Notes under the pieces: generated by a model
Database searches by the model: none
What the model was told of the DNA's origin: nothing
Seen by the model: the letters and a program-made list of their open reading frames with translations, nothing else
Made by a program: the position numbers and the translations under genes
DNA from: Proteromonas lacertae
Taxonomy: Eukaryota
DNA: 64,000 bases
Direction of reading: 5' to 3'
NCBI GenBank assembly: GCA_002245135.1
Contig: NGBS01000611.1
Location: 1 to 64,000 of the forward strand
In this document: piece by piece, positions 2 to 45,253 of the stretch
Layout: each line of letters opens with the position of its first letter
How positions within the stretch are numbered: the first letter of the stretch is position 1

Positions 2-1150
2 GTGATTCCATTCAAGAATGGTGAATTGCAAGGACAAATAGTTTTTTTAAAAGCGAAGAATTCTAAATCAGAAGAATTATTGAAAGTTGGACAAGATAAA
101 GAATTGAAGTTATCAAAACAATTGTCAGACCTTATCTTAGAGAATGATAAGCATCAAAAGGATTTAGAGACAAAGACTAAAGAATATCAAATAGAATTGA
201 GTAAAAACCAATTGAAATTAGAGAAATATATTGCTGATATAGGTAATATGCAGGAAGAATAAAAATAACTCAACAAAGAATGAATTGTTAGAAAGTGATT
301 TAAATACGACTACAATAAAATATAACAATCTCCAAAAAGAGTTTGAAGCATTGCAGAAGAGGTATGAACTTTGTGAAGAGAAAGTAAGATTTGTGTTGCA
401 AATCACTCATCATTAGATGGATCATCACAATCTGCAGCTTCATCTCCATCAAAAATACCTCCACCACCATCTACAATGCATGATTCTGCATTAGAAGGAA
501 AAGTAAAGGAATTAAACGAAGAAATAGAAAGATTAAAAGGAGAGAATCAAGAGAAAGATTCAACAATTGATAATCTTCAAGCAATTATTGAAGATTTGAC
601 AGCCAAATTACAAGATTATGCAGATCAGACAGATGAATTAATGAGGAAAGCAGGTGAGGAATCAGATAAACATAAAGTGAATGAATTACAAAAAGCTAAG
701 AAGAATGTGGATAGTATTGATTTTTTTTTTATTTTTAATTAAATAGAGGCTGTAAAGGCTGTAGTGGATAGAAAAACACAATTTCAGGAAATTAGAAGAT
801 ATGATACTATTCCAAAACAACCTGCAATTATTACCATCATATGTTGTTTACACTTATTGAATCATGAAGTTGATGTGAATAGTAGTTCCTTGACACTAGC
901 TCAATGGAATTATATTAGAAATTTCTTTAAATATTCGTTGGTGGTTGAAATATCTGAGTATAACATCATGGATAAGCTTGATGATGACGAAGTGAAAGAG
1001 AAGATAGGTATAATAAGAGAACAAATTCAGAAATGTAATAGTAAGGAAGTTTACTCTGCTTCATCAGTGATTGGCGCAATATATGATTGGTTAAATGGAT
1101 TAATTGGTTTGTATGATACAGCTATGAATGAGAAGGAGTTAATGTCATAG
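2..1150 (+). CDS. Coiled-coil protein with C-terminal dynein stalk microtubule-binding-domain-like fold (5' partial; paralog 1)
   Basis: ORFs 2-262, 476-742 and 764-1150 join through apparent indels and a GT-AG intron at 714-746. The C-terminus FQEIRRYDTIP...QWNYIRNFF...VYSASSVIGAIYDW is homologous to the genes at 4237 and 5902. Confidence 0.6.
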
Positions 1151-1267
1151 TATTATTATCGCTTAATTATAATTTTTATATTTTTAATGTATTATTCATG
1201 TAAATGAAATTTGGGAATAAAATAAAAAAATATTCGTTTCTTATTCCATTTCTAATTTTTTTCTTAA

Positions 1268-3341
1268 ATGGCTCTAGAATACGATTCTTCAGCATTTTCA
1301 TATTTCATATTCACTTGTCTAGTGATTTATTTCATTCCAGCAACTTTATTTGTAATATGGAGATGTTACAAAGCAGTAAGAAGAAATACTGTTGTTGAGA
1401 ATGCAAGAACAGAAGCTGAAAGGCTAAAACTACAAAAATACTTGAAAAGAAGACATTTACCAACACTTTGTGTACTAAATGCTTTTCTATACATTTTGTA
1501 ATATATATTGCAATATTTGCAATATTAGTGAATACAGTATCAAAACCTACAAACTCAAAATGAATTAAAAGGTTTTGATCCTTATGAAATCTTAGGTGTA
1601 GAACCAGGAGCATCCGATAGAGAAATTAAAAAGGCATACCGTAAACTCAGTTTGTTGTACCATCCAGATAAAAATCCTGGGAATGAAAACAAATTCATCA
1701 TCATTTCAAAAAGCTTATGATGCTTTAACAGATCCATTAGCTAAAGAGAATTGGGAGAAATATGGCAATCCAGATGGACCACAAGAATTCAAAATATCGA
1801 TGGGTTTACCAAAATGGTTATCTGAACAAAAAGAATCAGAATCTAGCCGTTTTATTTTATATGATATTTTTATTGGTAATTATTCCTGGCTTAGTATATT
1901 CCTGTTATCAATCTACCAAAGATGTATCTGGTGAAGAAGAAATATTAAATAAAACTCTTTATTATATTGTGAATTTCTTTTTCCAAACACTCCATTTAGA
2001 GGAATAGTTGAATTATTTTCACTATCTTCTGAATTTGTAGATGGAAAAAAATATCAAAATAAGAAGTGGAGAGCAACAACATCTTCGTGAAATGTACAAT
2101 CAAATGATCAAAGAGAATAAAATGCATAAACCTGGTGATTTATATCAACATACAGATCCATCTAAATTAGAGAATTTATCTACCAGTAGGATATAGAGGT
2201 TTAAAGACATTAATATTAATTCATGCATATATGAACAGATTACCTAATTTAAATGAGAATGATATGGAAGATTTACAATTTATATTACAAAAAGCACCAG
2301 CATTATTAGAGAATATGATTGGAATGGTATTTCATCCACAATGTAGAGCCAATCATATATATTCAGTAGTTAATACAATTATTACATTCTATCAATGTAT
2401 GATGCAAGGATTAAGTCCTAAGGATTCAGAATTTAAACAATTTCCATATTTAGGTGATGATGAAATAAAACATATTGTGGAAGGTAAAAAAGGTGTAAAA
2501 GGATTGTTGGAATATTTGTGTTTACCTGAGTATATATTATATAATTTATTATATTATATATTATAGTGAAGAGAAAAAAGGATTGAAATATTTAACTGAA
2601 GAACAAAGAATTGATATCTACAAATCATGTAAAATATTCCCAAAGTATGAAGTTAAAATCCATCCAAATGTTGGTGGTGAAGATATTATTATTCCAATGG
2701 ATTTAGTCACTTGTAGTGTCACAATAACTAGAAAGAATTTAGAAGAAAATGAAGACTCAATTGGACCAGCCTATTCATTATCATATCCTCTACCAATTAA
2801 AGAAAAAATATATTTATTGATAACACAAAGCACTATTGTCAATATGATTGACAATATAAAGAAGAAAACAATGCATCAAGAGAAAATAGGTGTAATAATT
2901 GGATTTGAATTCGCCAAGAATCAAGAAAGAGAGTTTACAGTAGATATTAGATTCCCAGCTCCACCAAGACCAGGATTATATAATTTTATATTATATGTAA
3001 AACCATCATGTTATAGAGGTTTAGATCAAGAAATACCATTTACTATCAAAGTAGATGAATCCAATGCAGTGAGTGAGAAACCAATAGATAAAGAAGATGA
3101 AGAAATTTTGAATAATTATAATGGACCTTTAGATTTATTACAAGATCATAGTAATAGTGAGAGTAGTGATAGTGAAGATGATAAAGATGATTCTGATAGT
3201 GAGAATGATATTGATAAAATACCTGACAAAAAGAAAGGAAGTGATAATGATGATGATGAAGAAGATGATAATGATGAAAATAATAATAAGAAGAAAAAGA
3301 ATAGTGATAGTAGTAGTAGTAGTGATTCTGACAGTGATTAA
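1268..3341 (+). CDS. SEC63: ER translocon subunit Sec63 (TM + J domain + Sec63/Brl domain + acidic tail)
   Basis: N-terminus [14 protein letters not shown] domain FDPYEILGV...[16 protein letters not shown]...[19 protein letters not shown]; acidic C-terminus. Intron near 2530-2566. Several small frameshifts at 1490-2200 are probably assembly errors. Confidence 0.9.
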
Positions 3342-3403
3342 TTAAACTAAAAGAGTTATGAAACATAAGAAATTACGATTTTTATTATTATTTTTTTATT
3401 TAA

Positions 3404-4163
3404 TTATTTTGATCTTTGTTTTTTCCATTTATAAACCGGTGCTTCTCCATTTTCACCTTCTGATACTTTGATATATTTACCTTTTCTCATTAAATTCCTC
3501 TGGCTTTGGACATGATCAATAATTCGTTTAATTTCTTTAGTTTTTGTCTGATATTCATTCAATTCTTCTTTTGTCTTGTTTTGACCTATTTGAATCTGTT
3601 TTAATGTATCTATATCTGAATTACCAATAAATATATTCTTCTTCAAATCATCTTTTCTAATTCTGTTGAATGTTCTTGATACTAACTCAGGTTCTGTGTC
3701 AAAATACTCAGCAGCATCAAAATTCTGTACTTGTTCTTCTTCATCGAGGAAAATTGTGTGTTTTGGCTTTGCATTTGGTAAAATATGAAAAGTTGATTGA
3801 AGTTTTTCTGCTTTTTTCATATTCTCCTGTTTCTTTGATGTTAAAAACTCATAATCTTGAAGTTTTGCTTTTTTAACTTTTTCTTTATCTTCTTCAGTAG
3901 TCTCTCCATTTCGTTGCTATTCAAATAACAATATTTATCTATAGAAATACTTTTGATATTGAAATCATCTTGCAATAGAATTCATCTGGATTTCTGAGTG
4001 ATGCTTTAAGCATTAAGTTCTGTAGAAATTGTTTCTTGACATGATAGGCTTTAGCACGAGCTGTATAGTCTTTATGTTTTTCCAAGAATCCCAATCGCTG
4101 TCTTGCTTCAGGTTGAGATCTTTCTTTGTGTATTTTTGATTTGCCTACCTTTTTAAATGACAT
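3404..4163 (-). CDS. UTP11: U3 snoRNA-associated protein 11
   Basis: HKERSQPEARQRLGFLEKHKDY...RNPDEFY and C-terminal PVYKWKKQRSK. One 34-nt GT-AG intron at 3917-3950. Confidence 0.92.
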
Positions 4164-4236
4164 TATACAAAATTAATATGAAACAAGCCAAACTTATTTA
4201 TGAGGTTTGAACAAATCTGAACCGATAGTTGAGAAA

Positions 4237-5772
4237 ATGGATTTTGATGAAATTTATGGTTGGAAGTATAAAGAAGCACTTCAGGTAAATAATTCACTTG
4301 AAAAACAGCTTAAAATGCTGAAAGATTTCTCAAAAAGGTTTGAAGGTATTGTTGATGGCAATCAATCCTCAAGGGAAGAGCTTAGAAAAACAAAAGAAAA
4401 TAGAATCAATAAACATAATGAATATATTCAACAATGTGAGAAAGAATTAGAAGATTTCGAAGTGAACATGGCCAATAAAGAACAAACAATAGAAAAACAA
4501 GCAAATGAAATTTCAGAATTAACAGCAAGAGCTAAAGAGGATAAGGCCACAATCAAGAAGTTTAAATCCGAAAAAGAGAAATTACTCCAAGAAATCCGTG
4601 TACATCAAAAAGAAATTGATCGTTTAAAGCAACAAATAGAAGAATACCTCAAAAAATGGAAGTATTGTTTAACTCACCATAATGAGCAAGAAATAGCTGC
4701 ACAGAGAGCAGAAGTAGCAGGTTTAGAAGAAGAATTAGAAAATTTACAAGATCAACATGATGATATAAAACGTGAATGTGATAGAGTTCAAAATGAAGAT
4801 CCTGAATTATTAGATTTAAAGAATCAATTAAGAGCCAAAGAAGGTGCTTACAGTGATATAAATAAACAGAACCAACAATTAAGAAATCAATTAAATTCAG
4901 TGAGAGAAAATATCAGATTAAAGGATTTATTCCAATCTGATCTTCAAAAAGAAATAAGAGATAAAGGCGAAAGAATAGAATCAATTGGTAAACGTATTGT
5001 AGGATTAAAAGACAAATTAAAAGAATTAGAGCAAGAAAGGGATGAAAAAGATCGATTATTAGCAGAGCAAACATCTAAATTAGACGAAGAAAACAAGAGA
5101 CTGGAAGATGTAAAAGATCAAATTCCAAAACCACCAACATCAAGACGAGGAAGTACAAGTAATGGCGCAGGAGGTAGTAATAGTTTCTCATTTGAAGGTG
5201 CAGATATAGAGAATGAAGAAGAACAAGAAGATGATTTCTATAGAAGAATGAGCACTTTAAAGCGAAGAGTAAGATATGCAGTAAAGACTATATTATCATT
5301 GAGATCACAATTTGCTGAGATTAGAAGGTATGATAAGATGCCTAGAGTTGGACCTTTGAAGATATTAATGTGTGGTTTATACTTGACAGATCATATTAGC
5401 TCAGAAGAATTTGGAATGGAAATAACAGAGATAGTACAATGGAATTATCTTAAGAATTTCTATGGTTATTCTTTGGTTATTGAATTTTCAAGATTTGATA
5501 TTGAAGAACATTTAAGTGACTATGATATTCCGATTATAGAGAATATTAGAACAGCTGTGGCTCATATTGATATTGATGATGTTAATCAGTACAGTCGTTG
5601 TATTGGTGCTTTACAAGAGTGGATGCAGACTATGCTTATGTTGTATGATGCTAAGGTAGAACAGTTAGAAAGAGAAGGTAAAGAAAGACCAATGATCGCT
5701 AAACCTGTTTCTCGTTTTGGTCCTGATTATCATTCACCTTTGAAATTAAAAACTGACGATGATGATGAATAA
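4237..5772 (+). CDS. Coiled-coil protein with C-terminal dynein MTBD-like domain (paralog 2)
   Basis: Single long ORF with first ATG at 4237. About 300 aa of heptad-rich sequence, then FAEIRRYDKMP...QWNYLKNF...SRCIGALQEWMQTMLMLY. Confidence 0.7.
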   Translation: MDFDEIYGWKYKEALQVNNSLEKQLKMLKDFSKRFEGIVDGNQSSREELRKTKENRINKHNEYIQQCEKELEDFEVNMANKEQTIEKQANEISELTARAKEDKATIKKFKSEKEKLLQEIRVHQKEIDRLKQQIEEYLKKWKYCLTHHNEQEIAAQRAEVAGLEEELENLQDQHDDIKRECDRVQNEDPELLDLKNQLRAKEGAYSDINKQNQQLRNQLNSVRENIRLKDLFQSDLQKEIRDKGERIESIGKRIVGLKDKLKELEQERDEKDRLLAEQTSKLDEENKRLEDVKDQIPKPPTSRRGSTSNGAGGSNSFSFEGADIENEEEQEDDFYRRMSTLKRRVRYAVKTILSLRSQFAEIRRYDKMPRVGPLKILMCGLYLTDHISSEEFGMEITEIVQWNYLKNFYGYSLVIEFSRFDIEEHLSDYDIPIIENIRTAVAHIDIDDVNQYSRCIGALQEWMQTMLMLYDAKVEQLEREGKERPMIAKPVSRFGPDYHSPLKLKTDDDDE

Positions 5773-5901
5773 GAATATAGTCTATATATGTCTAATCTTT
5801 ATATATTAATGTGAAAATTTGATATTTTTTATTTTTGGAATAAATTCTAAAATTAGAGTCGTTTCAGGACTAACAGATTTTTTTTTATATCTAGCTGTAG
5901 G

Positions 5902-7361
5902 ATGTCTAATCAGGACACATTCGAGTATAAATATAACGAAGAAATTAAAAAGACCGGCATACTCCAAGAGGAAATTGATAAGATAAGAAAAGAGAATGAA
6001 TCGAAACATGAAGCTTTTCAGGATGGAAAATCACAGAAAGACATAGTAATAAATGAACTAGAGCAAGTGAATGAGACGATAGCGCAATATAAGAAAGAAA
6101 TGGAAGTGAAACGTAAAGAAAACGCTTTAGCTCTTAGTGAGAAAGTACAAATAATAGAAAATCAACAAGATGATATGAAATCATTAAATGATGCTTTAAA
6201 AGAAAACAAAATAGTGATTAAATCCTTAAATGCAGAAAAGTCACAGTTACAAAGAGAAATATTGGTAGATATTAAAACAATAACTCGTTTAAAAGGTCAA
6301 TTAGATGAATTAATAAAGAAATGGAATTATTGTAGAACTCATCACAAAGAGAGAGAAATTGCAGCTCAAAAAGAAAGAGTAAAGTTGTTACAAGAGAAAA
6401 TCAACGATTTTAGAAAGAAAAACGAAGATTTAGAATCAAAATTGAACTTCCTTCGTAATGATAAAAGTCGTATACTTAATTTAAAAGAACAAATAATGAA
6501 GAAAGATAATCAATTAAGTGAAGCCTCAAAAGATAATAAAGTCTTAAAGAAACAATTAGAAGAATTCCGTCAGAACTTGAGAGAGAAGGATAATATGGAA
6601 AAAGAACTGCAAAAGGAGTTGAGAGATAGAAATGAGAAAGTGAGATTAATTGGTCAAAAAATTACATCGTTGAGAGTAAGAGCAAAAGATATAGAAACTG
6701 AAAATGCGAAAAAGGAAAAAGAAATTAATGAAACAAGACAAAAGATTGAAGATTTGTCTGATCAAACTGCAGATTATCAAATGCAATTATTGAAGACTTC
6801 TAGAAGAAATAGTGCTTCATTTGTATATATATATTATGTATTATATTATTAAAAATATAGTCGTTTGATGGTGAATTTCCGATGGATGAAGATAGTCCAA
6901 GTGATGATTTAGCTAGAAGGATGAGTACTTTAAAAAGAAGAGTGAGATATGCTGTAAAAACTATTTTATCATTGAGATCACAATTTGCTGAGATTAGAAG
7001 ATATGATAAGATGCCTAGACCTGGTCCATTAAAGATATTAATGTGTGGTTTATACTTGACAGATCATATTAATGAAGAAGAGTTTGATATGAATATAACT
7101 GAAATGAGTCAGTGGAATTATCTTAAGAATTTCTATGGTTATTCTTTGGTTATTGAATTTTCAAGATTTGATATTGAAGAACATATGACTGCTTATGATG
7201 CTCCAATTTTAGAAAATATAAGAAATGCTGTTAAGAATATTGATGTGAATGATGTGAACCAGTATAGTCGTTGTATTGGTGCTTTGCAAGAGTGGATAAC
7301 TACAATGTTAAATCTCTATGATGCCAAAATTGAACAGATACAGAAAGAAGGGAAGTATTAA
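5902..7361 (+). CDS. Coiled-coil protein with C-terminal dynein MTBD-like domain (paralog 3)
   Basis: ORFs 5902-6852 and 6882-7361 are joined by a phase-0 intron at 6823-6860. The C-terminal domain is nearly identical to paralog 2. Confidence 0.7.
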
Positions 7362-7709: not shown

Positions 7710-10312
7710 ATGAGTAAATTAAACATTTACTATAGTATAAATACATTATTTATATATTAGTATGCATATTTGCACTAATCTTCGTTTGCGTAAGTGGCTT
7801 TAGTGATCTAAGAAAAGATCAGAATAAAAATCCTTTAAAAGTAGTGAATCATGGACCTTCCTCAAAACTAGTTGAGTATAAACTCGAATCTCTACTTGTA
7901 CATAGTAATTCAAATGAAGGTGAAGATTTAATTGTTAAGAAACGTATTAATATTGATGAAGAAAGAGAATTGGATGTTACAGGATCAGAAGATGAACCTT
8001 CAGGAAGTACTAGTTCAACAGCTGATGTAACAACAACACCAGCTGCAACAGGATCTACAGCTCCAATAACCGAATCTACTGGAGCAACAACTGAACCAAG
8101 TGATGCTGGAAAGACAACTCCAGAAGCAACAACAACAACATCTGGTGGAGATGATGTTAATACCAATGATGGAGATGAACCACAAACAACTCATCCTTCG
8201 ACAACACCAGAAAGTACAACAACTCCAGAAGAAGAAGGCACTACTGGAACAGAAGAAGAAGGAACAACTCCACAAGCAACAATACTTGATAAATTATCTT
8301 GCCCATTTGAAAGAACACGTTATGTATATGTTAAAGGTGATAAAAAGACAATAAATTTAAGAAAACTTGAAGAAAATGATAGTAATATTACTTACACAGA
8401 TATAACTTGTAATCCTATTTACGAAGGAATTTACTATGATAATACAACTAATGTCATAGTTGATACATCAGTTGAATATTCTGGTGTTTGTACTATACGT
8501 TGTAATGCTAAGGGATTTTCTGAAGGTTCATCATCTTTTTCTATTTCTATTGTTGATTATAAAGCAATTGGAATAAATCCTATATTATCAAGAGTTCCAG
8601 CTGTAGTGAACCTATCAAAACCATTCAATGTAACATTAGTATTACAATATCCATCAATTACAGATGCACAAGATATTCCAGAAGGAAAATCAATTACATT
8701 GAATTTCGACGATGTTAGTAAATCTGATTATAATATAACGCAAGATGGTTTAGGAGATGTAGAAGAATTGGCAAATAATTCTACATTTAGATGGGATGAT
8801 TTACAGATCAATTATAATGGTGATGATACAATATATGGTTTAAATCCTGTGACTGTTAATGTCAAAGACAATAAATTAAAGAGTTATGAAAATTACACAA
8901 TAAAAGTTAACCATGATGATAATTGTACATATAGTAATGGTTATGATGAAGAAGGTTTATGTTGTAATAGAACTTATCAAGGAGAATATTGTACAAAAAT
9001 AAAAGCTACTTTCACATTCAACAACAACGATGGTGATTTTGATAGCTTTAAAACCGCATTCGTAAATGGTGTTAATACAATTACTACTGGAAGTCCATAC
9101 TTTTCTCAAAGAATAGAAAGTGAATCTAACGGTAGAGTTTTATCTGACACAAATGCTATCACATTATTAGTTACATATATTGAAGGTGGAAGTAATCCAT
9201 ATGCAAATAGATTATCAACAAGATTATTACAAGGAGGTATTGATTGGAATAGCATTTTTAGTGATGGAAAAATTGATCCAATTCAATTTGGTACAGCATT
9301 ATTATCAATTGTAGGTCCAAGTGATAAAAGTGATGGAACTATAGAAATACCTCCAGAATTAAAAGGTACACCAATTGGTAATGCATTAAAGGATGTAGTT
9401 GAAAATAAAGTTGTCACAGATGCTGTTGCAACCATTACTACAGTAGCTGATGAACAAGGTATTACAAAAGATCCAAATAATTATTTCAAATCTGAAGCAA
9501 CAGATGAAAAAGCTCCAGATGAATTAGAAGTAAAACCATTTGATAATAATTCCAAACCTTGGGCAGAAGAATATTGGTGGGTGATATTAATAATATGTAT
9601 TGGAGCTGTATTAATAATCGGAATAATCGTAGCAATATTAGTAGTATCATTATCAAGTAGTGGTGGAAGTAAAACTAACAAGAAAGATTTAGAAAAGAGT
9701 GAAAAGATAATGGAAACAGTAATTCCAATCGAAAAGATAAAACAAGAGAATGAGATAAGTGATGATGATATTTATAAACCATTTAGTTATGAAGTAATAA
9801 TGGAAGGTTATTTATTAAAGAGTGGTCGAGATCGATTAGTTGGAAAATGGCAGCGAAGATATTGTGTATTATATTTTGAACCAGCTGTATTGAGAATCTA
9901 TGATTCGATGGTTCCTAGTTATTATGGTAAAGTATATATTGATGAGAAACAAAGTATTCCATTAGATTGTTATAATGGAATTGAATATAAAGATGGAAGT
10001 AATGAATTTACATTGGTATTGAAAGTTCGAGATTCTTCAATCAAAGCATTTGAAGCAGGTGATAAAGAGAGAAAGATTGTGATGAAAGTAGAAGGTGAAA
10101 ATAGTATAGAAACAGCGAAGAGATGGGTAGAATGTTTTAGAGATTTTAAGAATCAAAAACCTAAAGCTGGAGATGCTTGGACAAGACCTTTAATAATTGA
10201 TCAAAACAATGGAAAGATTTCGACAAGTACAAACAAAGCAGCTGAAAAGAAGAATGAAGAAATAGTGTTGAAAGCTCAACAAAGAAGACAAGCAATATCT
10301 AATTCCAATTAG
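7710..10312 (+). CDS. Type I membrane surface protein: signal peptide, Thr/Glu-rich mucin-like stalk, Cys-containing variable ectodomain, TM, cytoplasmic PH domain (copy 1)
   Basis: ATG at 7710 plus a 26-nt intron (7735-7760) gives signal peptide MSKLNIYYICIFALIFVCVSG. TM is WWVILIICIGAVLIIGIIVAILVV. PH motif VIMEGYLLKSG...KWQRRYCVL...AKRWVECF. Confidence 0.85.
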
Positions 10313-16118: not shown

Positions 16119-19100
16119 ATGTGTTATAAGTTATGTTGTTTATTTGTGTTGTTTATAATTATGTATGTAGATATATCATTCATTTAACCCTGTAGATCTT
16201 TTTTCTCTGTATCGTTAGCTGAAGGGAGTTACAACACTCCAAATACCAACAAAGGTGCTGGCTATTATGACAGTAGTATAAAAGAACTGAAATATATCAA
16301 TGACGTGATGTATTTATTTAAAGAGACTAACACAAATATTGTTGAGATAAAGTCATGTAAAAAGGATGAATCAATAATAAAATTGTCAAATTTTACTGTT
16401 AAACTTCTTGATGCTTCAAATTGCAGAATTGAAGAGAAGCAAATAGAGTTAGATGTAATTAACTCATTTTATAAAACGTATAATATTTCATTTATTACAT
16501 TTTTAGAATTAGTCTTATTAAACTATATTCAACTGACGATATTTATGGCATTAAGATAGAATCACCTTGTAAATTGATATGTATATTAATTGATATATTA
16601 TACTGTATATAGACGAAAGTACATTTGACGAATCAATGGGTTGTGATGATAAAAGAGGAATAGAATTAACAAAATTTGACACATCTAAAGAAATATCTGC
16701 TTATAACAATAAAATCCTATTCACAAGTCAAATTGAAAATAAAAACGTTATGATATATAAACAAATCACAGATATTAGCAAAATTCACTCAAAATCACCT
16801 AAATCAGTTATATCAAGTGGTGATAATTTAGAACCATCTTGGTATTTGATTGTATCTCCATTAAAACCACACAATTCAACTCATATTATCTCATCAATTG
16901 AAATTCAAAGCAATAACAACAACAACATAATATACAATATTCACTATTCAAATATTATTTTCAATTCTGTAAGTAAAGATATGATATTAAGTAGTTATAA
17001 TACAGTGAAATATGATATTTATATTAATATTAAAGATAATTACAGCTTTGATAAGAAATATTGTTTTAGAATAAAGAGTAATAATGGTGATAATGAAGAT
17101 TTAATACATTGTTATAATATTACAGAATCAAGTATAAATATATATATTATCATTATTATATTGAAATAGTTTGTCAAGCAAAATACAGTAAATTTATACC
17201 AAATGAATCATGTAATGATTTCAAAAGAATTATTAAAGTTATACCTTCTTATCCAGATATATGTAATAATAATAATAACAATAATAATAGAATAGAAATA
17301 GAATGTGATAATCTGGAGTAATAATTCAACAATAACAACATTAACAATTATCTTATATCTATTCATCATATTTTCAATGATTACATTGTCATTATTTATG
17401 ATATATTTCTCATTACATATCAGATATTTATTCAGTCAATTTATTATTTTCAATTTCATTGGATTGTTGTTATATTCTATTACATTTATATTTGGATTTT
17501 TTAGTTCTTCTAAACAAGGATGTTATGGATATATGTATGGTACAAATATTGGTGAAGTCATTATTATTCTATATACTAGCATGCTTAGTCAAATATAATA
17601 TTAAAGTATAAATATATATATGTTTTATTTATATTTATATATATAGAAAAGTACATGTAAAGGAATTATATCCTATAATAAATGGAAAATACAATTAATA
17701 TCGTATTTCATACCATTATTGCTATGTCAAATCTTATTAATTGTTTTATCAACTCCATTTTATCAGACTCATCATGTCAATTATGATAATATAACAGTTT
17801 ATTCTTATAGTAACTGTTTTCTGGTAGATAATGACAATGAATCATATAAAAGAATTATCCCATCTGTTATCCACTTTTCGTTAATGTTTTATATTGTTTT
17901 TGGTTCAATTTATTCGTTAATGTTTGGAAATGAATCAACAACAAGATCAATGAAAATTGGATCTTTGTTTAATATTCTCTATGGAATTATATATATTACA
18001 TTTAGTATTATATACATGGTAAATGGTGAATCTACAATGAAAGATAGGTTTTTGTTCGTTTATATTCCATTCTTTATTTACATTTTCTTATTTTTAGTAT
18101 GTTCTGTTTCATTGTTATTAATGAATAAAGATCAGAAATATATTATCATTTCAAGTATGTTAGGTGATCCAGTTTATAAGTTATATATTGAATTATATAT
18201 GAAAAGTATCAAGGAAGACTCTTACCTACATTTTTTTGATACTATGAATAAAATGTTTAGTCAAAAGATAGTAGATTCAACAACAACATTACCAATACAA
18301 AGTATTTATTCAACCTATTTTGATAAAAATGGAATTAAAAAGATTGAAATAGATGAAAAAATAAAAGATGAATTAGATAAGAATATGACATTAAATCCAA
18401 CAACATATGCCATATTTAGACCAGCTTATATTTATGTTGAGAATTATATCCAAAATAATATTATACCTTCATATTTACAAACTGCTTATAGTCAAACTGC
18501 AGAATCAATAGCAGAATGGTTGAGTGATTTTGATCTATTGCCATATGAAGGAAAAACAGTTGTAAAATATAAAATCCAATTATTACATCCAAATAATGAT
18601 AGAATGTTAATTGACAGAGTTGCTAGTTTAAAGAATAATAATAGTAACAGATTTATAAAGATCGCTAGTAATAGAATATATCCACAACAATCGAACAATT
18701 CAATGAGTAATCATTATATGTCTGTATTTAATCAAAATATGACAATATCTGTAGAACAACAATCTAATAGATTTTCAGATGCTAGAACTAGTGCATTAGC
18801 TAAGAAAGAATCAATTGGTAAGAATAACAAAGTGAAGGGATGTATAGTTGATGTTACTAATAAAAATGTTGAAGTAATGACATCTGATGATATATCAAAA
18901 CATATAACAAGAGGAAGTGCATTGGAGATAAATAGTCAAGATATTAATGTTATTGCACCTTGGAACAATCAAGAAATGGTAAAGAAACAAAACACAATCG
19001 ATTTAAGTAAACAAGATGTGAATGAGATAGCTCCTTGGAATAATCAAGAAATGGTAAAGAAACAAAACACAATCGATTTAAGTAAACAAGATGTAAATGA

Positions 19101-19359
19101 GATAGCTCCTTGGAATAATCAAGAAATGGTGAAGAAACAAAACACAATCGATTTAAGTAAACAAGATGTAAATGAGATAGCTCCTTGGAATAATCAAGAA
19201 ATGGTGAAGAAACAAAACACAATCGATTTAAGTAAACAAGATAAATGAGATAGCTCCTTGAATAATCAAGAAATGGTGAAGAAACAAAACACAATCGATT
19301 TAAGTAAACAAGATGTAAATGAGATAGCTCCTTGGAACAATCAGAAACTTCCATCGTAA
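16119..19359 (+). CDS. 7TM receptor (class C-like) with N-terminal ectodomain, fused RGS domain and C-terminal 25-aa repeats
   Basis: Signal peptide MCYKLCCLFVLFIIISFFSVSLA (after an intron); about 7 hydrophobic segments at 17330-18120; RGS motif MLGDPVYKLYIELYMKSIKEDSYLHFF...IYSTYFDKNG..KIEID...IFRPAY..V...IQNNIIPSYL. As written the ORF stops at 19248; it ends at 19359 if two small deletions in the last repeat are errors. Confidence 0.75.
18937..19345 (+). repeat. Coding tandem repeat, 75-bp unit, about 5.4 copies (APWNNQEMVKKQNTIDLSKQDVNEI)
   Basis: TGGAA(C/T)AATC recurs at 18961, 19036, 19111 and 19186. The next unit is 3 nt shorter because of 2-nt and 1-nt deletions. Confidence 0.95.
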
Positions 19360-20647: not shown

Positions 20648-21474
20648 ATGACTAAAGGAAGTGAACACAACAGTGATGATGAAATTCAGTTTGTTGAACC
20701 TAAATCAACATATAGTCCATATTTAAATCTCTATATTGTATTGATTGTAGTAATAATTGCAATGCTGACGTATTAAGATTAAAATAATTGTTATTTTATT
20801 AGATATTATATATTCCTATGTCAATCAGAGAAAAAGAGTATTATAGAACAACATCCTTTGTTAAATATACAAATACCTACAAAGGAAGAACAATTGAAAC
20901 TTGCAGTACTATGGAGTAAATCTAGTATAATTATATGCAAAAATATATGAAATATAGTTACAAACATATACATTTCACCAACTGAAAAGATAAGAATTCA
21001 ACACTTGCCATCTCAACCCAAAATTATTCGTAATTTTCCAGATTTCTTCTATTCAGGAGTATCTTATGGAATTACAGGTTGGAATCCAATGGGCAGAAAA
21101 GTTGATGATAATGATAATATAAAAGCAAATTTAGAAATGAGAAAAGAACTTGATAAATTACATCCATCTATATTATTAGGAAGTTACAGTGAAGATCCTG
21201 AAGGTAGTTGGCGAGAAGTATCATATAATATAATTGCTAATATACATAGGATGGATTTTTTATTCATTTTAATCATTTTTCTGAAGAAATTGAGAATAAA
21301 GTGAAGATGATAGGTAGATTATATGGTCAAGCAGCGATATATAAATGGTATAATCATATTTGGGGTAAAAGTGAGAATATAAAAGCTCATTCAACAATAA
21401 TTCAAGAAACAGTTCCATGTAGTGGTGGTTTACAATATGTGAAATATTCAGGTCGTTTATTTGTAATTGAATAA
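20648..21474 (+). CDS. Membrane-anchored DUF3293-like protein
   Basis: N-terminal TM, then YGITGWNPMG....NIKAN...EDPEGSWRE|DGF...IGRLYGQAAIYKW, which matches the bacterial DUF3293 pattern. Three introns. Confidence 0.6.
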
Positions 21475-21562: not shown

Positions 21563-24160
21563 TTACTTGGAAGAAATAGCAGCTTGTCTTCTTTGTTGAG
21601 CTTTCAATACTATTTCTTCATTCTTCTTTTCAGCTGCTTTGTTTGTACTTGTCGAAATCTTTCCATTGTTTTGATCAATTATTAAAGGTCTTGTCCAAGC
21701 ATCTCCAGCTTTAGGTTTTTGATTCTTAAAATCTCTAAAACATTCTACCCATCTCTTAGCTGTTTCTATACTATTTTCACCTTCTACTTTCATCACAATC
21801 TTTCTCTCTTTATCACCTGCTTCAAATGCTTTGATTGAAGAATCTCGAACTTTCAATATCAATGTAAATTCATTACTTCCATCTTTATATTCAATTCCAT
21901 TATAACAATCTAATGGAATACTTTGTTTCTCATCAATATATACTTTTCCATAATAACTAGGAACCATTGAATCATAGATTCTCAATACAGCTGGTTCAAA
22001 ATATAATACACAATATCTTCGCTGCCATTTTCCAACTAATCGATCTCGACCACTCTTTAATAAATAACCTTCCATTATTACTTCATAACTAAATGGTTTA
22101 TAAATATCATCATCACTTATCTCATTCTCTTGTTTTATCTTTTCGATTGGAATTACTGTTTCCATTATCTTTTCACTCTTTTCTAAATCTTTCTTGTTAG
22201 TTTTACTTCCACCATTACTTGATAATGATACTACTAATATGGCTACGATTATTCCGATTATTAATACAGCTCCAATACATATTATTAATATCACCCACCA
22301 ATATTCTTCTGCCCAAGGCTTGGAATCTTCTGGAGAATGATCTACTTCATCACCAACTTGTGTTGTAGGTGTGAAATAATCCTCAGATTTTTTAACACCA
22401 TTCTCATTTGCTGAGATAGTAATTTCTTTAACAACTTTTTTAACTACATCTTCTTCAATTACTGTCTGTAATGCTGATTGTATTTCAGGTGGTAATCCTA
22501 TTGGTATTACAATTTCTTCAGGATTTCCAGTATTTTCACTTGGTGCTATTACTGATAAAAGAACATTACCAAATAAAATTGGATCAACTTGATTATTACC
22601 ATCCTTTCCATTTAAAATGTCATTCCAATTTATACCTCCTTCTAACAATCTTCCTTCAAGAGTTGGAAAATCTGGAGCTGTTCCATTTTCAATATATGTT
22701 AAAATGAATCTTATTTTATGATCATTTTCATCATTACCATTTGTTTTATCCTCATATTTATATGGACTAGTATTAAATATTACATTCATGTTTTCTGTAA
22801 AATTATTTTTAAATTCACTAAAACTACCACTACCATCAAATTCAAATGAAAATGCACCTTGAATTTTTGTACAATATTCTCCTTTATATTTTCTTTCACA
22901 ACATAACCCTTGAGGATCTACAGATTTTGGACTATTACATTCTTTATCATGACTAACAAGTATTTTAAACTTATGATTAATATGGTAAATACTATCAGAA
23001 ACACTAACAGTTACATCATCAACACCTTCTTCTTTATTAGTGTTGTAATTAAACTGTAAATCTTTCCATTCAAATGTAGTTGAATTTGAAATTGGTACAA
23101 CTTCTTTTTCATAACCATCTTGAGTAATATTATAACTTCTTGGATTAGTATCATTGAAATTTAATGTTACATCTTTCCTGTACTGCTTTAATTGATCCTC
23201 ATTTTCATAACCAGATATTGTTGGATATTTTAAAGCCAATGTTACATTGAATGGAGTAGATATATTAACAATTACTGGAACTTTTGATAAGATTGTATTT
23301 ATGCCATTTGGTTTATATTCAACAATTGATATAGAAAATGATGAACTTCCTTCTTTATATCCAGTAGCATTACATTTTATAGTACATTTCACATTATTTA
23401 ATTCTACATCTGTTTTAACAGTGACATTATTTTCTATACTATACGTAATATTTGGATTATTTTCATCACAACTAAAATCATAATAGTTAATATCTATTCC
23501 ATTTTCATTTAATTTAGTTGGATTTATTGTTTTAGTTTGACTTCCTACAATAAATTTATATGTAGGATATTGAAACGGACATTTTAATACTTCTTTTTCT
23601 GGTGTTGTTCCAGTTACAGTTTCTGTTGGTTGTGGTGTTGTCGCTGCTGGTTCATCTGTCTCACCACTACCACCTTCATCTTCTGGAGTTGTTGTTACAT
23701 CAGGTTTAGTTGTTCCTTCTGCTGTTGTAGCTTCGTATTTTGTTGTACCTGTGAATTCTTCACCATCATCACCATCTCCTTTTGGTGTTGTTGGACCTGT
23801 TGATCCTTCTTCTGACTTTTGAGTTGTTGTTACTTCAGGTGTTGTTTTTACTGAACCTTCTCCACCATCTTCACCAGTTGGTGTACCTTCTTCCATTTCT
23901 CTTTCTTCATCTAAGTTCATTCGCTTCTTTATTATCAAATCTTCTCCATCATTGTTGGAATTACTATTATTATTATAAAGATTCAAACTTATACTCATTC
24001 ATCTTTCCAGATAAACCATCTCTAAATCCACTTACTAACTTAGACTTCTTTTCTTTACTTAAATCACTTAAACCACTCACACTCACTAAAATCAATGCAA
24101 ACATGCATACTATTAAATTAAACAAACTAATATACCATAGTAAATGTTTAATTTACTCAT
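21563..24160 (-). CDS. Type I surface protein with cytoplasmic PH domain (copy 2; +1 frameshift near 23978)
   Basis: ATG at 24160 and a 26-nt intron at 24110-24135. One extra A relative to copy 3 (ttataaagattc vs ttataagattc) disconnects the signal peptide. TM+PH region is nearly identical to copies 1 and 3. Confidence 0.8.
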
Positions 24161-31417: not shown

Positions 31418-32959
31418 TTATTCATCTTTTTCACTTTCAACCTCTACATCATCCAAGGCAGCTAGATCAAAATTATCAGCAGGAAATCTATATTTCTTTT
31501 CACTTGTAGCTTCTGCTTCCTTATTCTCTGATATTTTCTCATTCCATTCTTTCTCAGCCTTACTTAATTTCTTCAACTGTTTCTTTGCTATTGATACTTT
31601 TTCTTTTTCTAACTGTAATTGTTCTTTTTGAATTCTCATCTTATCACTCAACATTCTTCTTTCATTCTCTTCTTTTTCTATTTCATATTTTGACATTGTC
31701 TCATGTAATTCTTTTTCTTTCTCTTTTAATAGTTTCTTCTGAGATCTTATTAACCTTTCTCTCCTTTTTAGTTTTTCTTCACTTTTATTCAATTTTGCAT
31801 GCTTTATTTCAATATTCATTTGTTCATTCTCTAGATATGTTTGTGCTTCTGGTGGTAATTTCTTCTATGAATATATATGAATATATAAAAAATATATAAA
31901 ATATACTTTTAATTCATCATCTTCATCATCATAATCAACTTCTGGTTTAAGACTTCCACTATTATAATCATTATTTGATTTTGACGTATTTGTATTTGAA
32001 TGAACTGATGTATGAGTATTACTACTTTCATCAAATTCATTAGACGAAGATATTTCATCATTTACTTGTTGTTGTTGTTGTGGAGATTGTGATTGTTTTG
32101 GTTCATCTTTCAATAATTCTTCATCTATTTCATCATCTATATCATTATTATCATTTTGATTGGCTTGAGTTTGACTTGGTTTATTGGATATTGCTGAAGA
32201 ATTAAAAGATGGTGATGATAATGATTGTTGAGTTTGTGATGGTATTTGTGAAGTTGCTGTTGCTGTTGGAGATGCTGGTTGTGATTTAGAAGGAGATTTA
32301 TTGTTATTATTTTGTTGTTGTTGTTGTTGTTGAAGTTTATATAATTGTTGTTGTAATTGATGAATTTCTTTAATATATTGTTTATTTTCAGTTTCTAATC
32401 TATTTATTTGACTGAATCTTGGATCAAATTTGAGTGATCTGATTTCTTCTTTTGCTTCTTGTAATGAATATCTCAAATTCACTATTTGTGATCTTAATTT
32501 TGATATTATTGAACCATAATATCCATCATCTGGTTGACCTGGTGGATGCATGTTATTATCTATTTCTTGTCTTATTTCTGCTTGTGTCAGAGATTCTACC
32601 CACAAATTTCTTGCTTGTGTGAGCTTTAGTTGTTCTTTTAAGTGATTATTTTCTTGTTTCAGTGATATTATTCTTTGATACATTTCTTCAGGTTCTAGTC
32701 GAAATTTTGGTCGATCTAACCTCGATTTACTATTCAGAATAACATAGGATAAATACTTTATATCGCCATCCATATAAGGACTGGGTTTGGCTGATACAGA
32801 TCGAATTCTTCTAGGACTTCTAGCTGAACTACACTTTGCTATATACAATAAACAGGATAATCTAATACATGATGCTCTACTGTGAGTTCTACTACTGCCT
32901 TTAGGTTTCATAGGAACATATCTAACAGGAGATGAAGAAAATTCATCTAAAAAATTCAT
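31418..32959 (-). CDS. Coiled-coil, Q/S/N-rich hypothetical protein
   Basis: ORFs 31865-32959 and 31418-31819 are linked by a GT-AG intron near 31865-31906. Confidence 0.55.
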
Positions 32960-34606: not shown

Positions 34607-37600
34607 CTATAAAGATACACCAGTATCAGTTCTAGGAATTTGAAATTCAACATTGTTATTTCTGAAAACTTTACATGAGTATTTACCACTCAATGTATTA
34701 ATAATTATTTCCATCAAATCTTTCACATTTGTCTTATCATCAACAATTAAATCAGCATCTTTGTTCTTTCCATCAACATCAACTCTAATAACAGGTACAA
34801 ATGGATGTCCTGGTGCAGCAGGTAAATCACTATAAGCAACAATAACATTAACACCACCACTTGCAATACCAACTAAATTCTCAATCCAACTCTCAGTTAA
34901 ACTCTGCATGATATGGTATTTATTATTTCTATCGCTTAAAGGTACAGTTTCACCAAATAAACAGGTATTTTGTGGTTTAACTTCATGGAATATTTTCTCA
35001 TTATATTCTTTTGATTGAATATGACTGCTTTTCTCTGTTGTTACAATATACATTCCATTACCACCAGCAATTGTTGTTAACTCAATTAATAACTTAATAA
35101 TTGGTTCAGGAAGTGATTTGCTGTGCGTAAATATACCAATACCATAGTTACAAATATCAGTGGTTATTCTTTCAGGTTGTTTTAATTCAGATACTTTAGT
35201 TTTGAGATAATTCTCTACTTTTTCATAACATTTATCAATACCATGATCATTTTGAATTGAAGCTTGTCCATAATCATTAATATTCATATTTAAACCTTTC
35301 ATCTATTCAATAATAATAATAATTAATAATAAATATACGATTTTATCAAAATAAGCAATCAATGTCTTTTCACATCCATGTTCCAATAACAATGTATTTC
35401 TGACATTATTATGAGTTAAATGACCAATCATTACTCTGTCATATAACTTTAATCCATCAAATGGATGATCACCATAACCTTCACCACATCCTTCAGTATG
35501 AGGTAATGCAACAATTCGACTATAAATATCACTAATACGGTTATTAGTTGAAGATGATGAATTGGTCTTTTGTTTCTTTGGTGATTTTCTTTTCTTTTCT
35601 TCATTCTCTAACATAGTTTGGAGGTAAAAAAATAATAAATTAAAGAAAATAATAATAATATATATAAAAAAAATGATATCTTATTGGCATATTTCATAGA
35701 AACTTGTCCTGAACATAAACTAGTAGGTAATACTAAGAATATATTATCACCACCAACTATTTCTCTTTCAGGTAATTTAACACCATCAAATTTCAATGTT
35801 GTTGTATTCACTGATTCAGATATAGGATATGGTGAATGACTTGGTGGTTTTCTTTCCATTGTAACTTTATAATCATCTTTAGAGATATTATACCAATTCC
35901 TCCATATTTGAACCTATATTTATTAATAAATATTTATACTTGTGAATGACCTGCTATTTCTCCTTGTGTTTTTTCACCACTACATACTCTAATCAATCTC
36001 TCAAATGTTTCTTCAGTCAAAGTCTCCATACTCTTACCATCTAAATATTCACCAGCATTCACATCAATATCACCACTTAATAATTCATATCTACCTGTTG
36101 TAGTCATTAACTTAATAATCGGTACAAATGGATGATTAGTTACTGATCCATTTCCTGTACTGAATAAGATAATATTACATCCACTAGCTACTTGTCCAGC
36201 AACTGATTCAATATCATTACCAGGACTATCCATGAAATAATAACCTCTTTCTTTATTCTGACTTCCTTCACTATAATTCAAACAGTAATCTAATCGACAG
36301 CATTCTGGTTTCTTCATTGCTGCACCTAATGATTTGATTGTAATGTTATATAAACCTCTATAGAAGTTTCCACCACTTGGATTACTTTGTGCACTCATTC
36401 CATGATTACCTGCCCATTCATCATAATGGGATTGTAACTGTAAAAAACTCTTTGCAGTTTCTAAATCTTTGACTTTATCTAATATATAACTACCTGCTCC
36501 TATTAATTCATCTGTTTCTGCTAAGATTCCTTTTCCACCTTGTTTGATTATCTTTGCTGCAATATTACCTTGTAATGGATTGGCACTTATTCCACTAAAT
36601 GCATCACTTCCTCCACATTGTAATGCGACGGTTAAATCAGAGAGTGGACATGGTTCTCTTTTGGAACGAGTAAATTGCTTTTTGAATTTATTTACCAGTT
36701 TTCTTCCTTCTTCGATTGTATCATCGAAATTTGGTTTTACTTCGATATATTCTGCTATTACTTTACTAATATCAATTCCTCTACCTGATATCTCTTTATC
36801 GATCATTTCTTTTGTTATGTGACATCTATACATACATAATTAAGAGAATTATATACGATGGTGAAGTTACAACTATAGCAGCACATGTATTTGGATGACA
36901 TATAAATCCAGCTATAGTTCTCAATAAGTAATCAATATTATGAGGAGTTGTATCACAATCATCTTCAGTATGTCTTATACAAGCCAAGCCGTCAAGATTC
37001 TTTGATTTGGCAAATGTATTACCAAATGAATTCACAATTGCTTGAGCATAGGGACCACAAACTGCATTCAAACCAATAACTACTATGAAACTCCTTGTTC
37101 CTACTCCTCTATTTCCTTCACGTTTATAACCGTCAAAGTAACGTAATTCTTTATCCAACGGTAATTGTTCTGCTGGTTTGAAATTCTTTTCATCTAACAC
37201 AAATTCGTCTATTCTATCATCAAAGTTGCATTCTGTTGGTAATTCAAGTGATGGATCAATTACTTCTATTGACATATAAATAATTATAACCACTATAAAT
37301 AGTAAATACTTAAAGCTTCTAATCCTCTTCGATTAATTAGATAATCACCTGGATGTAAATCAGTCAACGTTGTTCCAAATTCCAACCCCCATGAATATAC
37401 GTGTTTACCTTTTGGTATTTCTTCAATAGCAAATCTATGACCTAAACAACAAGTCTAAATTATCATTAAATAAACTAATTTGGTATAATTATTCAATAAA
37501 AAGATATATGTGAAATAGAAACAGTCTTCCCTTCTGGTAGTTCAATCTGTGTTCCTTTTTCTAAACGAACACATGCCACAGCACAATTGTCACCAGCCTT

Positions 37601-37642: not shown

Positions 37643-37710
37643 ATTCAATAAAATCTTTGATTTTATATTCTTCAGATTAGCTTGGCTTGATAATTATGAA
37701 AATTTAAAAA

Positions 37711-38665
37711 ATGGACAGTTTCACTACTTGGATGGAAGATAATAAAGATAATTTATCAGATAAAACAATATTTGATATTTTACTACCAGGAACACACGAT
37801 TCTGGTATTTTTCTCATATTTTATTAATTTTACACTAGGAGCATATGCTTTGGGTAAAAGTGTTGGACCAAATGGAGCTGGTTGTGGTATAGCAGGTAAA
37901 TGCAAAAAGTATCACATTTCAATTAGTGGAACTATGAGGAAATGGTCTCAAGCCCAACCAAATTGTATATATGAGCAACTAGATGCTGGTATTAGACAAT
38001 TAGATATTCGAGCATTATGGGATTCACAAGATTGGGTTTTACACCATTGTTTATTAGGTGATAAAATATTAAGAGTTCTTGTTGAAGTAAAGAGTTTTAT
38101 AGAGAAGCATGAATATGAAGTATTACGAATAGATTTTAGTCATACATTTTATTCTGCAGAAGGTTATAAAAATGAAGAATTATTTGATTTAATAATGAGT
38201 TATATTGGTGATTATTGTATTGATAGAGATACAGATCTACATACACTCACATTTGATGATATGTGGAAGACTAATAAGAGGATTTTAGTCACTTTTGATA
38301 GTGACAAAGGAATTGATAATTATAACTGTATTTTTAATTTGTCAACTATCGCTGAAGGGTATTTTTCTAATAAAGTGAAAGTAGCTGAGATGATTGAACA
38401 TAATAATATGTTGTTATCTAAGCATAATCCTAAGTTAATGTTGGATTTATCTTGGACATTGACTCCAAGAGCTGGGAATATTGTGAAAGGTATGTTCCAT
38501 TGTGGCAAAACGAATTTACTTCAATTAGCATCCAGTGCTGATGAGTATCTTACTGATTGGTTGAATACTCATAAAAATGAGATGAAAGGAGTTGTTTTGA
38601 TGGTTGATAACTATGAAAAATGTCCTGATTTAATAACTATGGCTATTCTAATTGCTCAAAGTTAA
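37711..38665 (+). CDS. PI-PLC X-domain (PLCXD/bacterial PI-PLC-like) protein without signal peptide
   Basis: WMEDN...LLPGTHDS|GAY...WSQAQ...EQLDAGIRQLDIR...LHH. One intron near 37805-37838. Confidence 0.85.
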
Positions 38666-38840
38666 TTTATTATCTTATATATTATCTAAATTTAAATAAT
38701 ATTTAATAATTTGTGTGTATTGGCTTATAAATGCATGAAATGTGTAATATGGACATATTTGTGATATATTATTCAACAGCTAAATCTATTTATTTTTAAA
38801 TATTCAAAAAAAGCGCCATTTCAAATTAGATTTGAAATGA

Positions 38841-40595: not shown

Positions 40596-40644
40596 TGGGG
40601 TGAATTAATAAATTTGTTAAAATATGTTTATTATCAGTATTTTA

Positions 40645-40882
40645 TGTTGGGAGCAGTATATTCTGGAGTAATCTCAGTTTATATGTAATTTCGTATATAA
40701 ATAATGTATGTTGAATTTAATATATGTATGTTGGTGTTTCTATTTTAAAATGGCAGCTATTGCTTTTAAAAAAAAGAATTTCAGTATTATTTATGAATTG
40801 ATATTCACTTCTCAAAGTATGAATATTAGATATTAATATTCTAAATAGTTGCTTCAAATTTTATTAGATAGTATTGGATTAT
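40645..40882 (+). pseudogene. Heavily deleted remnant of the MFS transporter gene
   Basis: Colinear patches match the reverse complement of 11955-12010 (TTGGGAGCAGTATATTC...AATCTCAGTTTATATG), 10590-10677 (CAGCTATTGCTTTTAAAA...TTCACTTCTCAAAGTATG) and 10518-10580 (TTATTAGATAGTATTGGATT). Confidence 0.85.
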
Positions 40883-40944
40883 TTGATTATTCTTTATAAA
40901 AAATACATTTCAGATATGTAAACTATATTATTATCAAATGTAAT

Positions 40945-45081: not shown

Positions 45082-45253
45082 AGTTTTTTATATATAATTA
45101 GTTTATAATCTAAAATTTTTATATTAAAATAATTTTATTATGTTTATAGGTTTGAGGATAAATATTAAATATCAATAATATAATTCAATACAATTAAAAA
45201 AAGAATTAAATGTATTTAGGTTTGATTCCTATCAAGCAATCTCATTCTTCAAA

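Follow-up and report, generated by a model that had tools for sequence, protein, structure and literature searches.

The window, by which we mean the whole 64,000-nucleotide stretch of Proteromonas lacertae DNA that was analysed, contains three genes encoding a C-terminal domain of ~140 aa, all on the + strand: P1 (domain at 749-1147), P2 (within the ORF 4237-5772) and P3 (6861-7361). The 5' end of P1 lies beyond the window. Its coiled-coil region (2..713), which includes an S/P-rich stretch at about 420-480, is joined by a predicted 33-nt intron (714..746; GT-AG, 91% AT, frame kept) to a last exon (747..1150) encoding a CC1 remnant, a domain with the predicted fold of the dynein microtubule-binding domain (MTBD), a CC2 remnant of about 20 aa and the stop. 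Two frame changes interrupt the P1 coiled coil, near 260 and near 383; they are probably assembly indels, because the neighbouring Sec63 gene is likewise frameshifted in several places. An intron at 384-416 was considered and rejected, as it does not restore the frame and is just 67% AT. P2 is a single-exon ORF of 511 aa (4237..5772) comprising a coiled-coil rod (4237..5106, aa 1-290) with a C-x-x-H-H motif (4666..4680, aa 144-148), an S/G-rich, acidic linker (5107..5241) with RRGS at 5143-5154, and a C-terminal unit (5242..5676) that begins with RRMS and consists of a basic CC1-remnant helix, the MTBD-fold domain and a short CC2 remnant. In P3, exon 1 (5902..6822) encodes the rod, with C-x-x-H-H at 6331-6345 and RRNS at 6802-6813, and exon 2 (6861..7361) the end of the linker, RRMS (6915-6926), the basic helix, the MTBD-fold domain and the stop; splicing out the predicted intron between them (6823..6860; 38 nt, GT-AG, 92% AT) yields a 473-aa ORF collinear with P2. 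The window holds no fourth copy: the family profile matches 3 of its 848 six-frame ORFs, the last exon of P1, itself a member of the profile, scoring 182 bits.

Neither an AAA ring nor a stalk can be encoded by P2 or P3, which bears out an earlier note on this DNA that saw no AAA ring here. Each of the three ORFs ends soon after the domain, with a further gene beyond it; the stop lies about 20-45 aa past the start of CC2, a helix of about 25 aa in the P2 model, after which the ORF ends. P2 and P3 are flanked by neighbouring genes at both ends, and P2 starts 73 nt from the divergent start of Utp11 (4163), which leaves no space for extra 5' domains. No AAA family came near the Pfam cut-off in P1-P3. 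The domain is 83% identical to that of P2 in P3 and 35% identical in P1 (P2 versus P1 by tblastn, E 5e-21). It is under purifying selection, with a dN/dS of 0.17 over 145 codons and of 0.44 in the rod, and relatives of the family are present in other assemblies.

The rods of P2 and P3 show a hydrophobic periodicity of 3.5 residues, and the regions upstream of the domain in P1-P3 give only sub-threshold Pfam matches, mostly to coiled-coil families. The C-x-x-H-H motif falls within the best-conserved island of the rod, where 13 of 20 residues are identical between P2 and P3 and the heptad periodicity drops; it could conceivably form a metal clasp or a hinge. Between the rod and the CC1 remnant lies the S/G-rich linker. 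All the RRGS, RRNS and RRMS sites that the earlier note placed before the domain in the second and third paralogs were found (RRGS at aa 303 and RRMS at aa 336 of P2; RRNS at aa 301 and RRMS at aa 326 of P3). Two such RRxS sites per protein compare with 0.15 (P2) and 0.12 (P3) in 5000 shuffles (P 0.010 and 0.006, the two proteins being non-independent). P1 and the relatives P0001 and P0060 lack the RRMS site. The basic CC1-remnant helix of P2 has a net charge of +8 over 24 aa and belongs to a 35-aa run identical to P3, after which the domain is net acidic (-9 in P2, -7 in P3).

The P2 domain was modelled with AlphaFold2, which has seen dynein MTBDs, from the three window sequences and with no templates. 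The best model reached a pLDDT of 74.8 and a pTM of 0.74 and was the only confident one of five, the others having a pLDDT of 43-51; a model built from the P1 sequence alone, with a pLDDT of 57 and no match to dynein, was too poor to inform. In the Foldseek comparison with dynein stalk structures that the earlier note had proposed, ranks 1-14 were taken up by entries for dynein MTBDs, dyneins or doublet microtubules (TM 0.54-0.72), the best at E 0.15 and none reaching E 0.001. Among 48,161 chains, six matched the model with a Z of at least 8, five of them dynein MTBDs (Z 11.8-14.1, rmsd 2.5-3.4, 126-130 residues aligned), and the first unrelated chain had Z 6.2; the comparison software cautions that values of Z under about 13 may be generic among helical proteins. 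Profiles free of dynein sequences matched the yeast dynein MTBD at E 5e-6 (15-sequence profile) and E 0.008. The yeast MTBD also ranked top when a 3-sequence profile was run against the PDB, but at E 0.97, and a single-sequence PDB search with the domain returned nothing relevant. Pfam MT (PF12777), the other suggested check, was negative: with E values up to 10 allowed, it matched none of the three window domains and none of the 15 members of the alignment. Predicted fold and profile together support homology of the domain to the dynein MTBD. The earlier observation of three paralogs ending, after a coiled coil, in a dynein-MTBD-like module is confirmed.

A search of 1.84 billion representatives gave 16 matches, none recognisably dynein; just one carried a Pfam family above cut-off, a Dpy-30 protein whose family matches Chlamydomonas RSP2 collinearly. 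Profile-profile comparison of the P1-P3 family with RSP2-type proteins gave a probability of 96.3% (E 2e-9, 134 columns). RSP2-type proteins, a set both chosen and scored with one kind of search, reach 43-63 bits across the whole domain, whereas the best solved dynein reaches 19 bits and covers half of it. Solved Chlamydomonas RSP2 was not matched by sequence profile, but its structure (7jtk_C 459-592) superposes on the P2 model with Z 11.9 (rmsd 2.5, 129 aligned). The family and the RSP2-type rows share two offsets of one residue from yeast dynein, at the CC1-H1 junction and at H3-H4. An Atlas search with the domain of the RSP2-type protein P0015 returned PF12777 clusters in 26 of 30 matches; with the P2 domain it returned just weak bacterial and phage clusters of low recognition and was uninformative. 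Judged by these comparisons, the nearest full-length relatives found are RSP2-type radial-spoke proteins, a motor-less lineage with solved members. The resemblance is confined to the C-terminal domain: a full-length RSP2-type profile of nine sequences aligns to the window at profile positions 441-612 and nowhere else, with no match to the central globular domain, described as GAF-like, that precedes the last coiled coil of RSP2. The Dpy-30 motif is absent from P2 and P3 in a Pfam scan, the 5' end of P1 being beyond the window. P2 and P3 are neither dyneins nor, since they lack the Dpy-30 head, RSP2 orthologs. A tree of 21 rows, many of them fragments, places a long branch (1.93) before the RSP2 group, but includes no dynein outgroup, so that the family is unrooted.

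Several tubulin contacts of dynein have counterparts in the family. The equivalents of yeast K3117, E3122 and R3124 in H1 are K/R, E and R in all three paralogs, the K3117 mapping being possibly off by one, and this triad is also kept in the four close-relative rows that cover the site; the R3124 equivalent is absent from the three RSP2-type rows. A K/R at W+4 of H3 in the paralogs matches Dictyostelium R3423. The equivalent of R3201 in H6 is Q or S, and those of R3152 and R3159 are absent. About four of six dynein tubulin salt-bridge positions thus appear to be kept (three in H1 and one Dictyostelium-type in H3), R3201 and the second H3 contact being missing. According to Nishida et al., each such mutation lowers affinity more than 2-fold.

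We suggest, with a probability of roughly 0.45 on the basis of model and sequence comparison, that the P1-P3 family is a dimeric, ATP-independent microtubule tether whose domain is closest to the RSP2 type. An RSP2-type domain would have been duplicated onto a new coiled-coil rod, and the rods would pair into a parallel dimer. Tubulin would be bound through H1, H3 and the basic CC1 helix; binding per head would be weak for want of the H6 arginine, and would be made effective by the avidity of the dimer, which could tether or cross-bridge microtubules with no need for ATP. As there is no stalk there would be no registry switch, so any regulation would act through phosphorylation of the RRxS sites of P2 and P3. 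We count against this proposal the missing H6 and H3 contacts, the net acidity of the domain, and the position of RSP2, the nearest motor-less relative with a solved structure, which sits off the lattice in the head and neck of the spoke.

The main rival, which we hold to be rather unlikely, is that the domain, as in RSP2, serves in protein-protein docking in the basal apparatus or axoneme, whether in a spoke, facing the central pair or bridging spokes, with the rod positioning the domain and no binding to tubulin. The RSP2-type identity of the nearest relatives argues for it, as do the lost H6 arginine and the acidity of the domain, and the fold recurs in trypanosome RSP2 (Z 7.5 against the P2 model) and in a doublet protein of bovine sperm, 1509 aa long (Z 10.9). 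An RPGRIP1L-type C2 domain encoded in the window, which clears the Pfam cut-off, suggests a flagellum and makes flagellar loss in the host unlikely; the absence of dynein motors or flagella that the earlier note had entertained is thus disfavoured. Blastocystis, for which a GC content of 21-23% or 39-55% and the loss of nearly all cilia genes are reported, is a poor match to this DNA, with its GC of about 28% and its RPGRIP1L-type gene. Against docking, P2 and P3 carry neither Dpy-30 nor another spoke-docking module, the K/R-E-R triad of H1 persists in the paralogs and close relatives, unlike in the RSP2-type rows, and the presence of several paralogs points to a family that has expanded more than to one spoke subunit.

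Two further explanations were weighed. In the earlier note's version the domain was exapted straight from a dynein heavy chain and retained as a static tether, in which case the likeness to RSP2 would be parallel divergence. Structural Z is slightly higher for dynein MTBDs (13-14) than for RSP2, and H1 has a dynein-like E-x-R, but the large search that found RSP2-type proteins found nothing recognisably dynein, and the difference in bit scores, the shared one-residue offsets and the lack of a PF12777 match all speak against direct descent, which we find improbable and the data do not support. That P1-P3 are decaying, functionless fragments of a dynein or RSP2 gene, as the two frame changes in P1 might indicate, is very hard to reconcile with intact P2 and P3, the dN/dS values of domain and rod, relatives in other assemblies and a Sec63 neighbour that is frameshifted too.

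Most work on the dynein MTBD treats it as a motor's tip, its affinity set via the stalk. A natural stalk-less family would allow a direct test of the head alone and of which contacts suffice, and would indicate that the fold spreads without dynein, via the radial-spoke protein RSP2. Since Pfam misses such copies, inventories of protist dynein loss and cytoskeleton may overlook them. If the proposed tethers do bind microtubules, they become candidates for links yet to be identified in the cortical or root microtubule arrays of protists. A broader reading, in our view doubtful, is that an RSP2-type domain was freed from the radial spoke, put on new rods and returned to true microtubule binding as an ATP-independent cross-bridge family, the MTBD fold being, with ICMAP2 and the sperm doublet chain, a widespread, Pfam-invisible stand-alone anchor. 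No text within our literature coverage, outside which fall two primary radial-spoke structure papers, calls RSP2, ICMAP2 or similar proteins MTBD-like. None of 269 candidates matched when P2 aa 335-490 was run through a word-index search limited to proteins of 281-895 aa, and locus scans for the family found it in 0 of 91 metagenome stretches and 0 of 64 prokaryote genomes; the single match of a P0011 locus scan (L001) was low-complexity and false.

Among known systems, the dynein heavy chain has an AAA+ ring that flanks the stalk; ring, linker and tail are absent from P1-P3, and only short CC1/CC2 remnants stand in place of the long antiparallel CC1/CC2 stalk. With the dynein MTBD itself (PF12777; PDB 3ERR, 5AYH, 6KJN/6KJO, 8I3J, 6L4P) it shares the predicted fold, a weak sequence homology over H3-H6 at 12-18% identity and, by the residue mapping, about four of the six salt-bridge positions, though neither the H6 arginine nor a match to the Pfam family. 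The C-terminal domain of RSP2 (Chlamydomonas, PDB 7JTK/7JRJ; trypanosome, 9E5C; RSP2-type P0015, P0036-P0042) is homologous over its full length and has the same fold, and like the family has short CC1/CC2 remnants only, no motor, and the E-[IL]-x-R-Y and L-x-C-x-L-Y patterns. P2 and P3 lack the Dpy-30 head, the central globular domain and the E/A-rich tail of RSP2, and have instead the 290-aa rod with C-x-x-H-H and the H1 arginine. A further comparison is offered by 9ya2_L, a chain in the structure of Toxoplasma ICMT1 that by its length and numbering is most likely ICMAP2. It differs in being a 1678-aa protein with no sequence match to the family, and its likeness is one of structure alone, at a middling Z of 7.9 (rmsd 3.4, 121 aligned). 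ICMAP2 is a microtubule-bound dimer that binds between protofilaments, and upon its loss a microtubule pair separates; motor-less, and with a globular domain superposable on the P2 model, it may be a precedent for a tether of the kind proposed here.

The + strand paralogs P1, P2 and P3 form a real family in which a coiled-coil rod carries a stalk-less head, of the type found in radial-spoke protein 2 (RSP2) and with the predicted fold of a dynein microtubule-binding domain (MTBD), an arrangement that was apparently undescribed before. P2 (4237-5772 +) is a single open reading frame (ORF) of 511 aa whose start and that of the divergent Utp11 gene are 73 nt apart, and P3 (5902-6822 joined to 6861-7361, +), which encodes 473 aa once a predicted 38-nt intron is removed, is 48% identical to it overall and 83% in the domain. 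P1 enters from the window edge and ends at 1150 (+); it contains a predicted 33-nt intron (714-746), and its domain is 35% identical to that of P2. The adjoining Sec63 gene (1268-3341 +) carries several frameshifts, which suggests indel errors in the assembly there. Since this neighbor is repeatedly broken too, the frame changes in P1, near 260 and near 383, look more like assembly indels than decay. The DNA of the window is eukaryotic and rich in AT (GC 23-36% per 2 kb), and its GT-AG introns are short; a possible 5' UTR intron is a GT-AG stretch of 34 nt (5861-5894 +) that lies immediately 5' of the P3 start and contains a CTAAC branch-like site. The family profile matches only P1, P2 and P3 among the 848 six-frame ORFs of the window.

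The likeness of the head to a dynein MTBD, claimed in the earlier note, is supported by both predicted structure and sequence profiles. AlphaFold2, given the three window sequences, produced one confident model in five (P2 domain; pLDDT 74.8, pTM 0.74). Six of 48,161 chains matched this model at a Z of at least 8. Five are dynein MTBDs (Z 11.8-14.1, rmsd 2.5-3.4) and the sixth is a sperm doublet chain; the best unrelated chain reached Z 6.2. Foldseek ranks 1-14 were all dynein MTBD, dynein or doublet-microtubule entries, with no match, these included, at E 0.001. Pfam, including its MT family (PF12777), recognized none of the three window domains and none of 15 family members. Independently of the model, a dynein-free profile of 15 sequences that included RSP2-type proteins (relatives with a matching C-terminal domain, mostly Dpy-30-bearing) detected the yeast dynein MTBD at E 5e-6, and one of 17 window-family sequences only did so at E 0.008, both over helices H3-H6. 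Modelling P1 from its sequence alone gave a poor model without a structural match, and the fold is therefore assigned to P1 through its homology to P2.

The domain is not a piece of a dynein heavy chain. The dynein MTBD is followed by a long stalk helix, CC2, and then by further AAA modules; all three ORFs end ~20-45 residues after the CC2 start and, as previously noted, encode no AAA ring. P2 and P3 each have an S/G-rich linker between their rod (280-290 aa) and a short CC1 helix.

Sequence comparison places RSP2-type proteins as the nearest relatives found. A window-only profile gave 16 matches at E up to 0.001 among 1.84 billion representatives, comprising 11 window-family-like fragments, four RSP2-type proteins (P0010, P0011, P0012 and P0015) and P0016, a short protein of uncertain placement, with no recognizable dynein. 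A search of longer proteins gave nine matches among 7992 scored candidates, seven with Dpy-30 and two homologous pieces without it, and a profile of these nine matched Chlamydomonas RSP2 collinearly (E 6e-10), the match being weak over RSP2 514-536 and 573-644. Neither of the two dynein-free profiles matched Chlamydomonas RSP2 itself by sequence; the window and RSP2-type profiles matched each other with 96.3% probability over 134 columns. Solved RSP2 residues 459-592 (7jtk_C, which we infer to be RSP2 from an RSP2 profile match and the structural match of 7jrj_I 461-534) superimposed on the model at Z 11.9 (rmsd 2.5, 129 aligned), and trypanosome RSP2 at Z 7.5. P0011 groups with RSP2 (support 100/99) in a domain tree built without a dynein outgroup, and 26 of 30 Atlas matches of the P0015 domain are PF12777 clusters. 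Window-family and RSP2-type rows have in common two one-residue offsets against yeast dynein, the dyneins aligned being those of yeast and Dictyostelium only. Direct derivation from dynein, with the same tether role, is improbable: dyneins score slightly above RSP2 in structure, but a profile free of both gave RSP2-type proteins, a set itself chosen by score, 43-63 bits over the whole domain against 19 bits over half of it for the best solved dynein. The fragments P0002, P0003, P0009 and P0013 hint that related assemblies contain additional paralogs. P0016 (186 aa) carries the domain on a long branch, with a more dynein-like H6 whose arginine is kept, and may represent either a separate stand-alone MTBD-fold family or a fragment.

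Six dynein-tubulin salt bridges, at K3117, E3122 and R3124 (H1), R3152 and R3159 (H3) and R3201 (H6), and the use of R3423/K3424 in H3 instead in Dictyostelium, are described by Nishida et al. (PMC7042235). Mapped through profile alignments and chain numbering, the H1 equivalents in all three paralogs are kept as K/R, E and R, the first possibly off by one, and the R3423 position is K/R in all three; the equivalents of R3152, R3159 and R3201 are absent. None of the three RSP2-type rows that cover H1 has an equivalent of R3124. P2 and P3 have a strongly basic CC1 helix (+8 in 24 aa), and the domain beyond it is acidic. The RRxS kinase-type sites reported before the domain in P2 and P3 are present, and the RRMS at the start of CC1 is absent from P1 and from the relatives P0001 and P0060. 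This pattern would fit weak tubulin binding per head, helped by avidity. Between P2 and P3 the domain is under purifying selection (dN/dS 0.17 over 145 codons; rod 0.44 over 285 codons, with dS near saturation). Because dS is lower in the domain (0.68 vs 1.43), a degree of gene conversion is possible, and this could have lengthened a 35-aa run identical in both.

A passive microtubule tether is the most likely function, at a probability of roughly 45%; an axonemal docking protein instead is rather unlikely, though less so than direct dynein descent. The suggestion of a relic after flagellar loss is unlikely, because an RPGRIP1L-type transition-zone gene (58389-59624 +), whose C2-C2_1 domain (59181-59624; 32.5 bits vs cut-off 29.2) lies behind a coiled-coil ORF, suggests a flagellated organism. 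Blastocystis is a poor match as the source, since PMC12129017 gives it a GC of 21-23% or 39-55% and almost no remaining cilia genes, against about 28% GC and this RPGRIP1L-type gene in the window.

Elsewhere in the window, four large paralogs (7736-10312 +, 21566-23998 -, 40948-43524 - and 54239-57166 +; 35-66% identical) have a T-rich ectodomain and a hydrophobic segment, with a C-terminal PH domain barely over cut-off in both of the two scanned, and are a possible surface receptor family. Altronate/galactarate dehydratase (35937-37332 -) and DUF3293 (20951-21301 +), identified by Pfam, belong to families typical of bacteria and are candidate horizontal transfers. The product of 17647-19245 +, with an RGS domain behind hydrophobic segments, is possibly a membrane-anchored RGS protein. 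A coiled-coil ORF (31868-32959 -) presumably resembles IQCE, for which Pfam gave no support. Three tandem galactosyltransferases lie within 37700-47478 + and 49653-53238 -, as do repeated ORFs that we take to resemble PI-PLC X-domain proteins, three of them bearing THDSG or a similar motif.

RSP2 combines Dpy-30, a central domain and the C-terminal MTBD-fold domain, whereas P2 and P3 share only the last; Pfam and RSP2-type profile scans found neither of the others in them, and they are therefore not RSP2 orthologs. The long C-terminal part of RSP2 reaches the spoke head surface, according to PMC10774353. The chain 9ya2_L of a Toxoplasma ICMT1 structure (Z 7.9 on the model; 162 modelled residues numbered 1208-1457) is probably ICMAP2, possibly a further motor-less copy of the predicted fold, and may be an unrecognized MTBD-fold microtubule cross-linker. 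In the portions available, ICMAP2 is reported to lack a recognizable domain (PMC10774369) and to form a microtubule-bound dimer, with dynein mentioned only among the references (PMC12819142). The literature consulted held no text naming these domains MTBD-like, and the available parts of PMC3583065, PMC12366701, PMC12399478, PMC10266980 and PMC5780805 held nothing bearing on the fold; the primary RSP2 structures (Gui et al., Grossman-Haham et al.) may describe it. Motor-less copies in solved structures are RSP2, in two species, and 9fqr_Xl, a 1509-aa bovine sperm doublet protein labelled AKAP14 in the PDB match listing, whose residues 1343-1495 form an MTBD-fold domain (Z 10.9; profile E 0.27). 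From its length, we suspect 9fqr_Xl to be EFCAB5. EFCAB5 has a DPY30 motif and is sited in the RS3 stalk, as stated in PMC11779644; if the two are the same, mammals would have an RSP2-like protein combining Dpy-30 with the MTBD fold.
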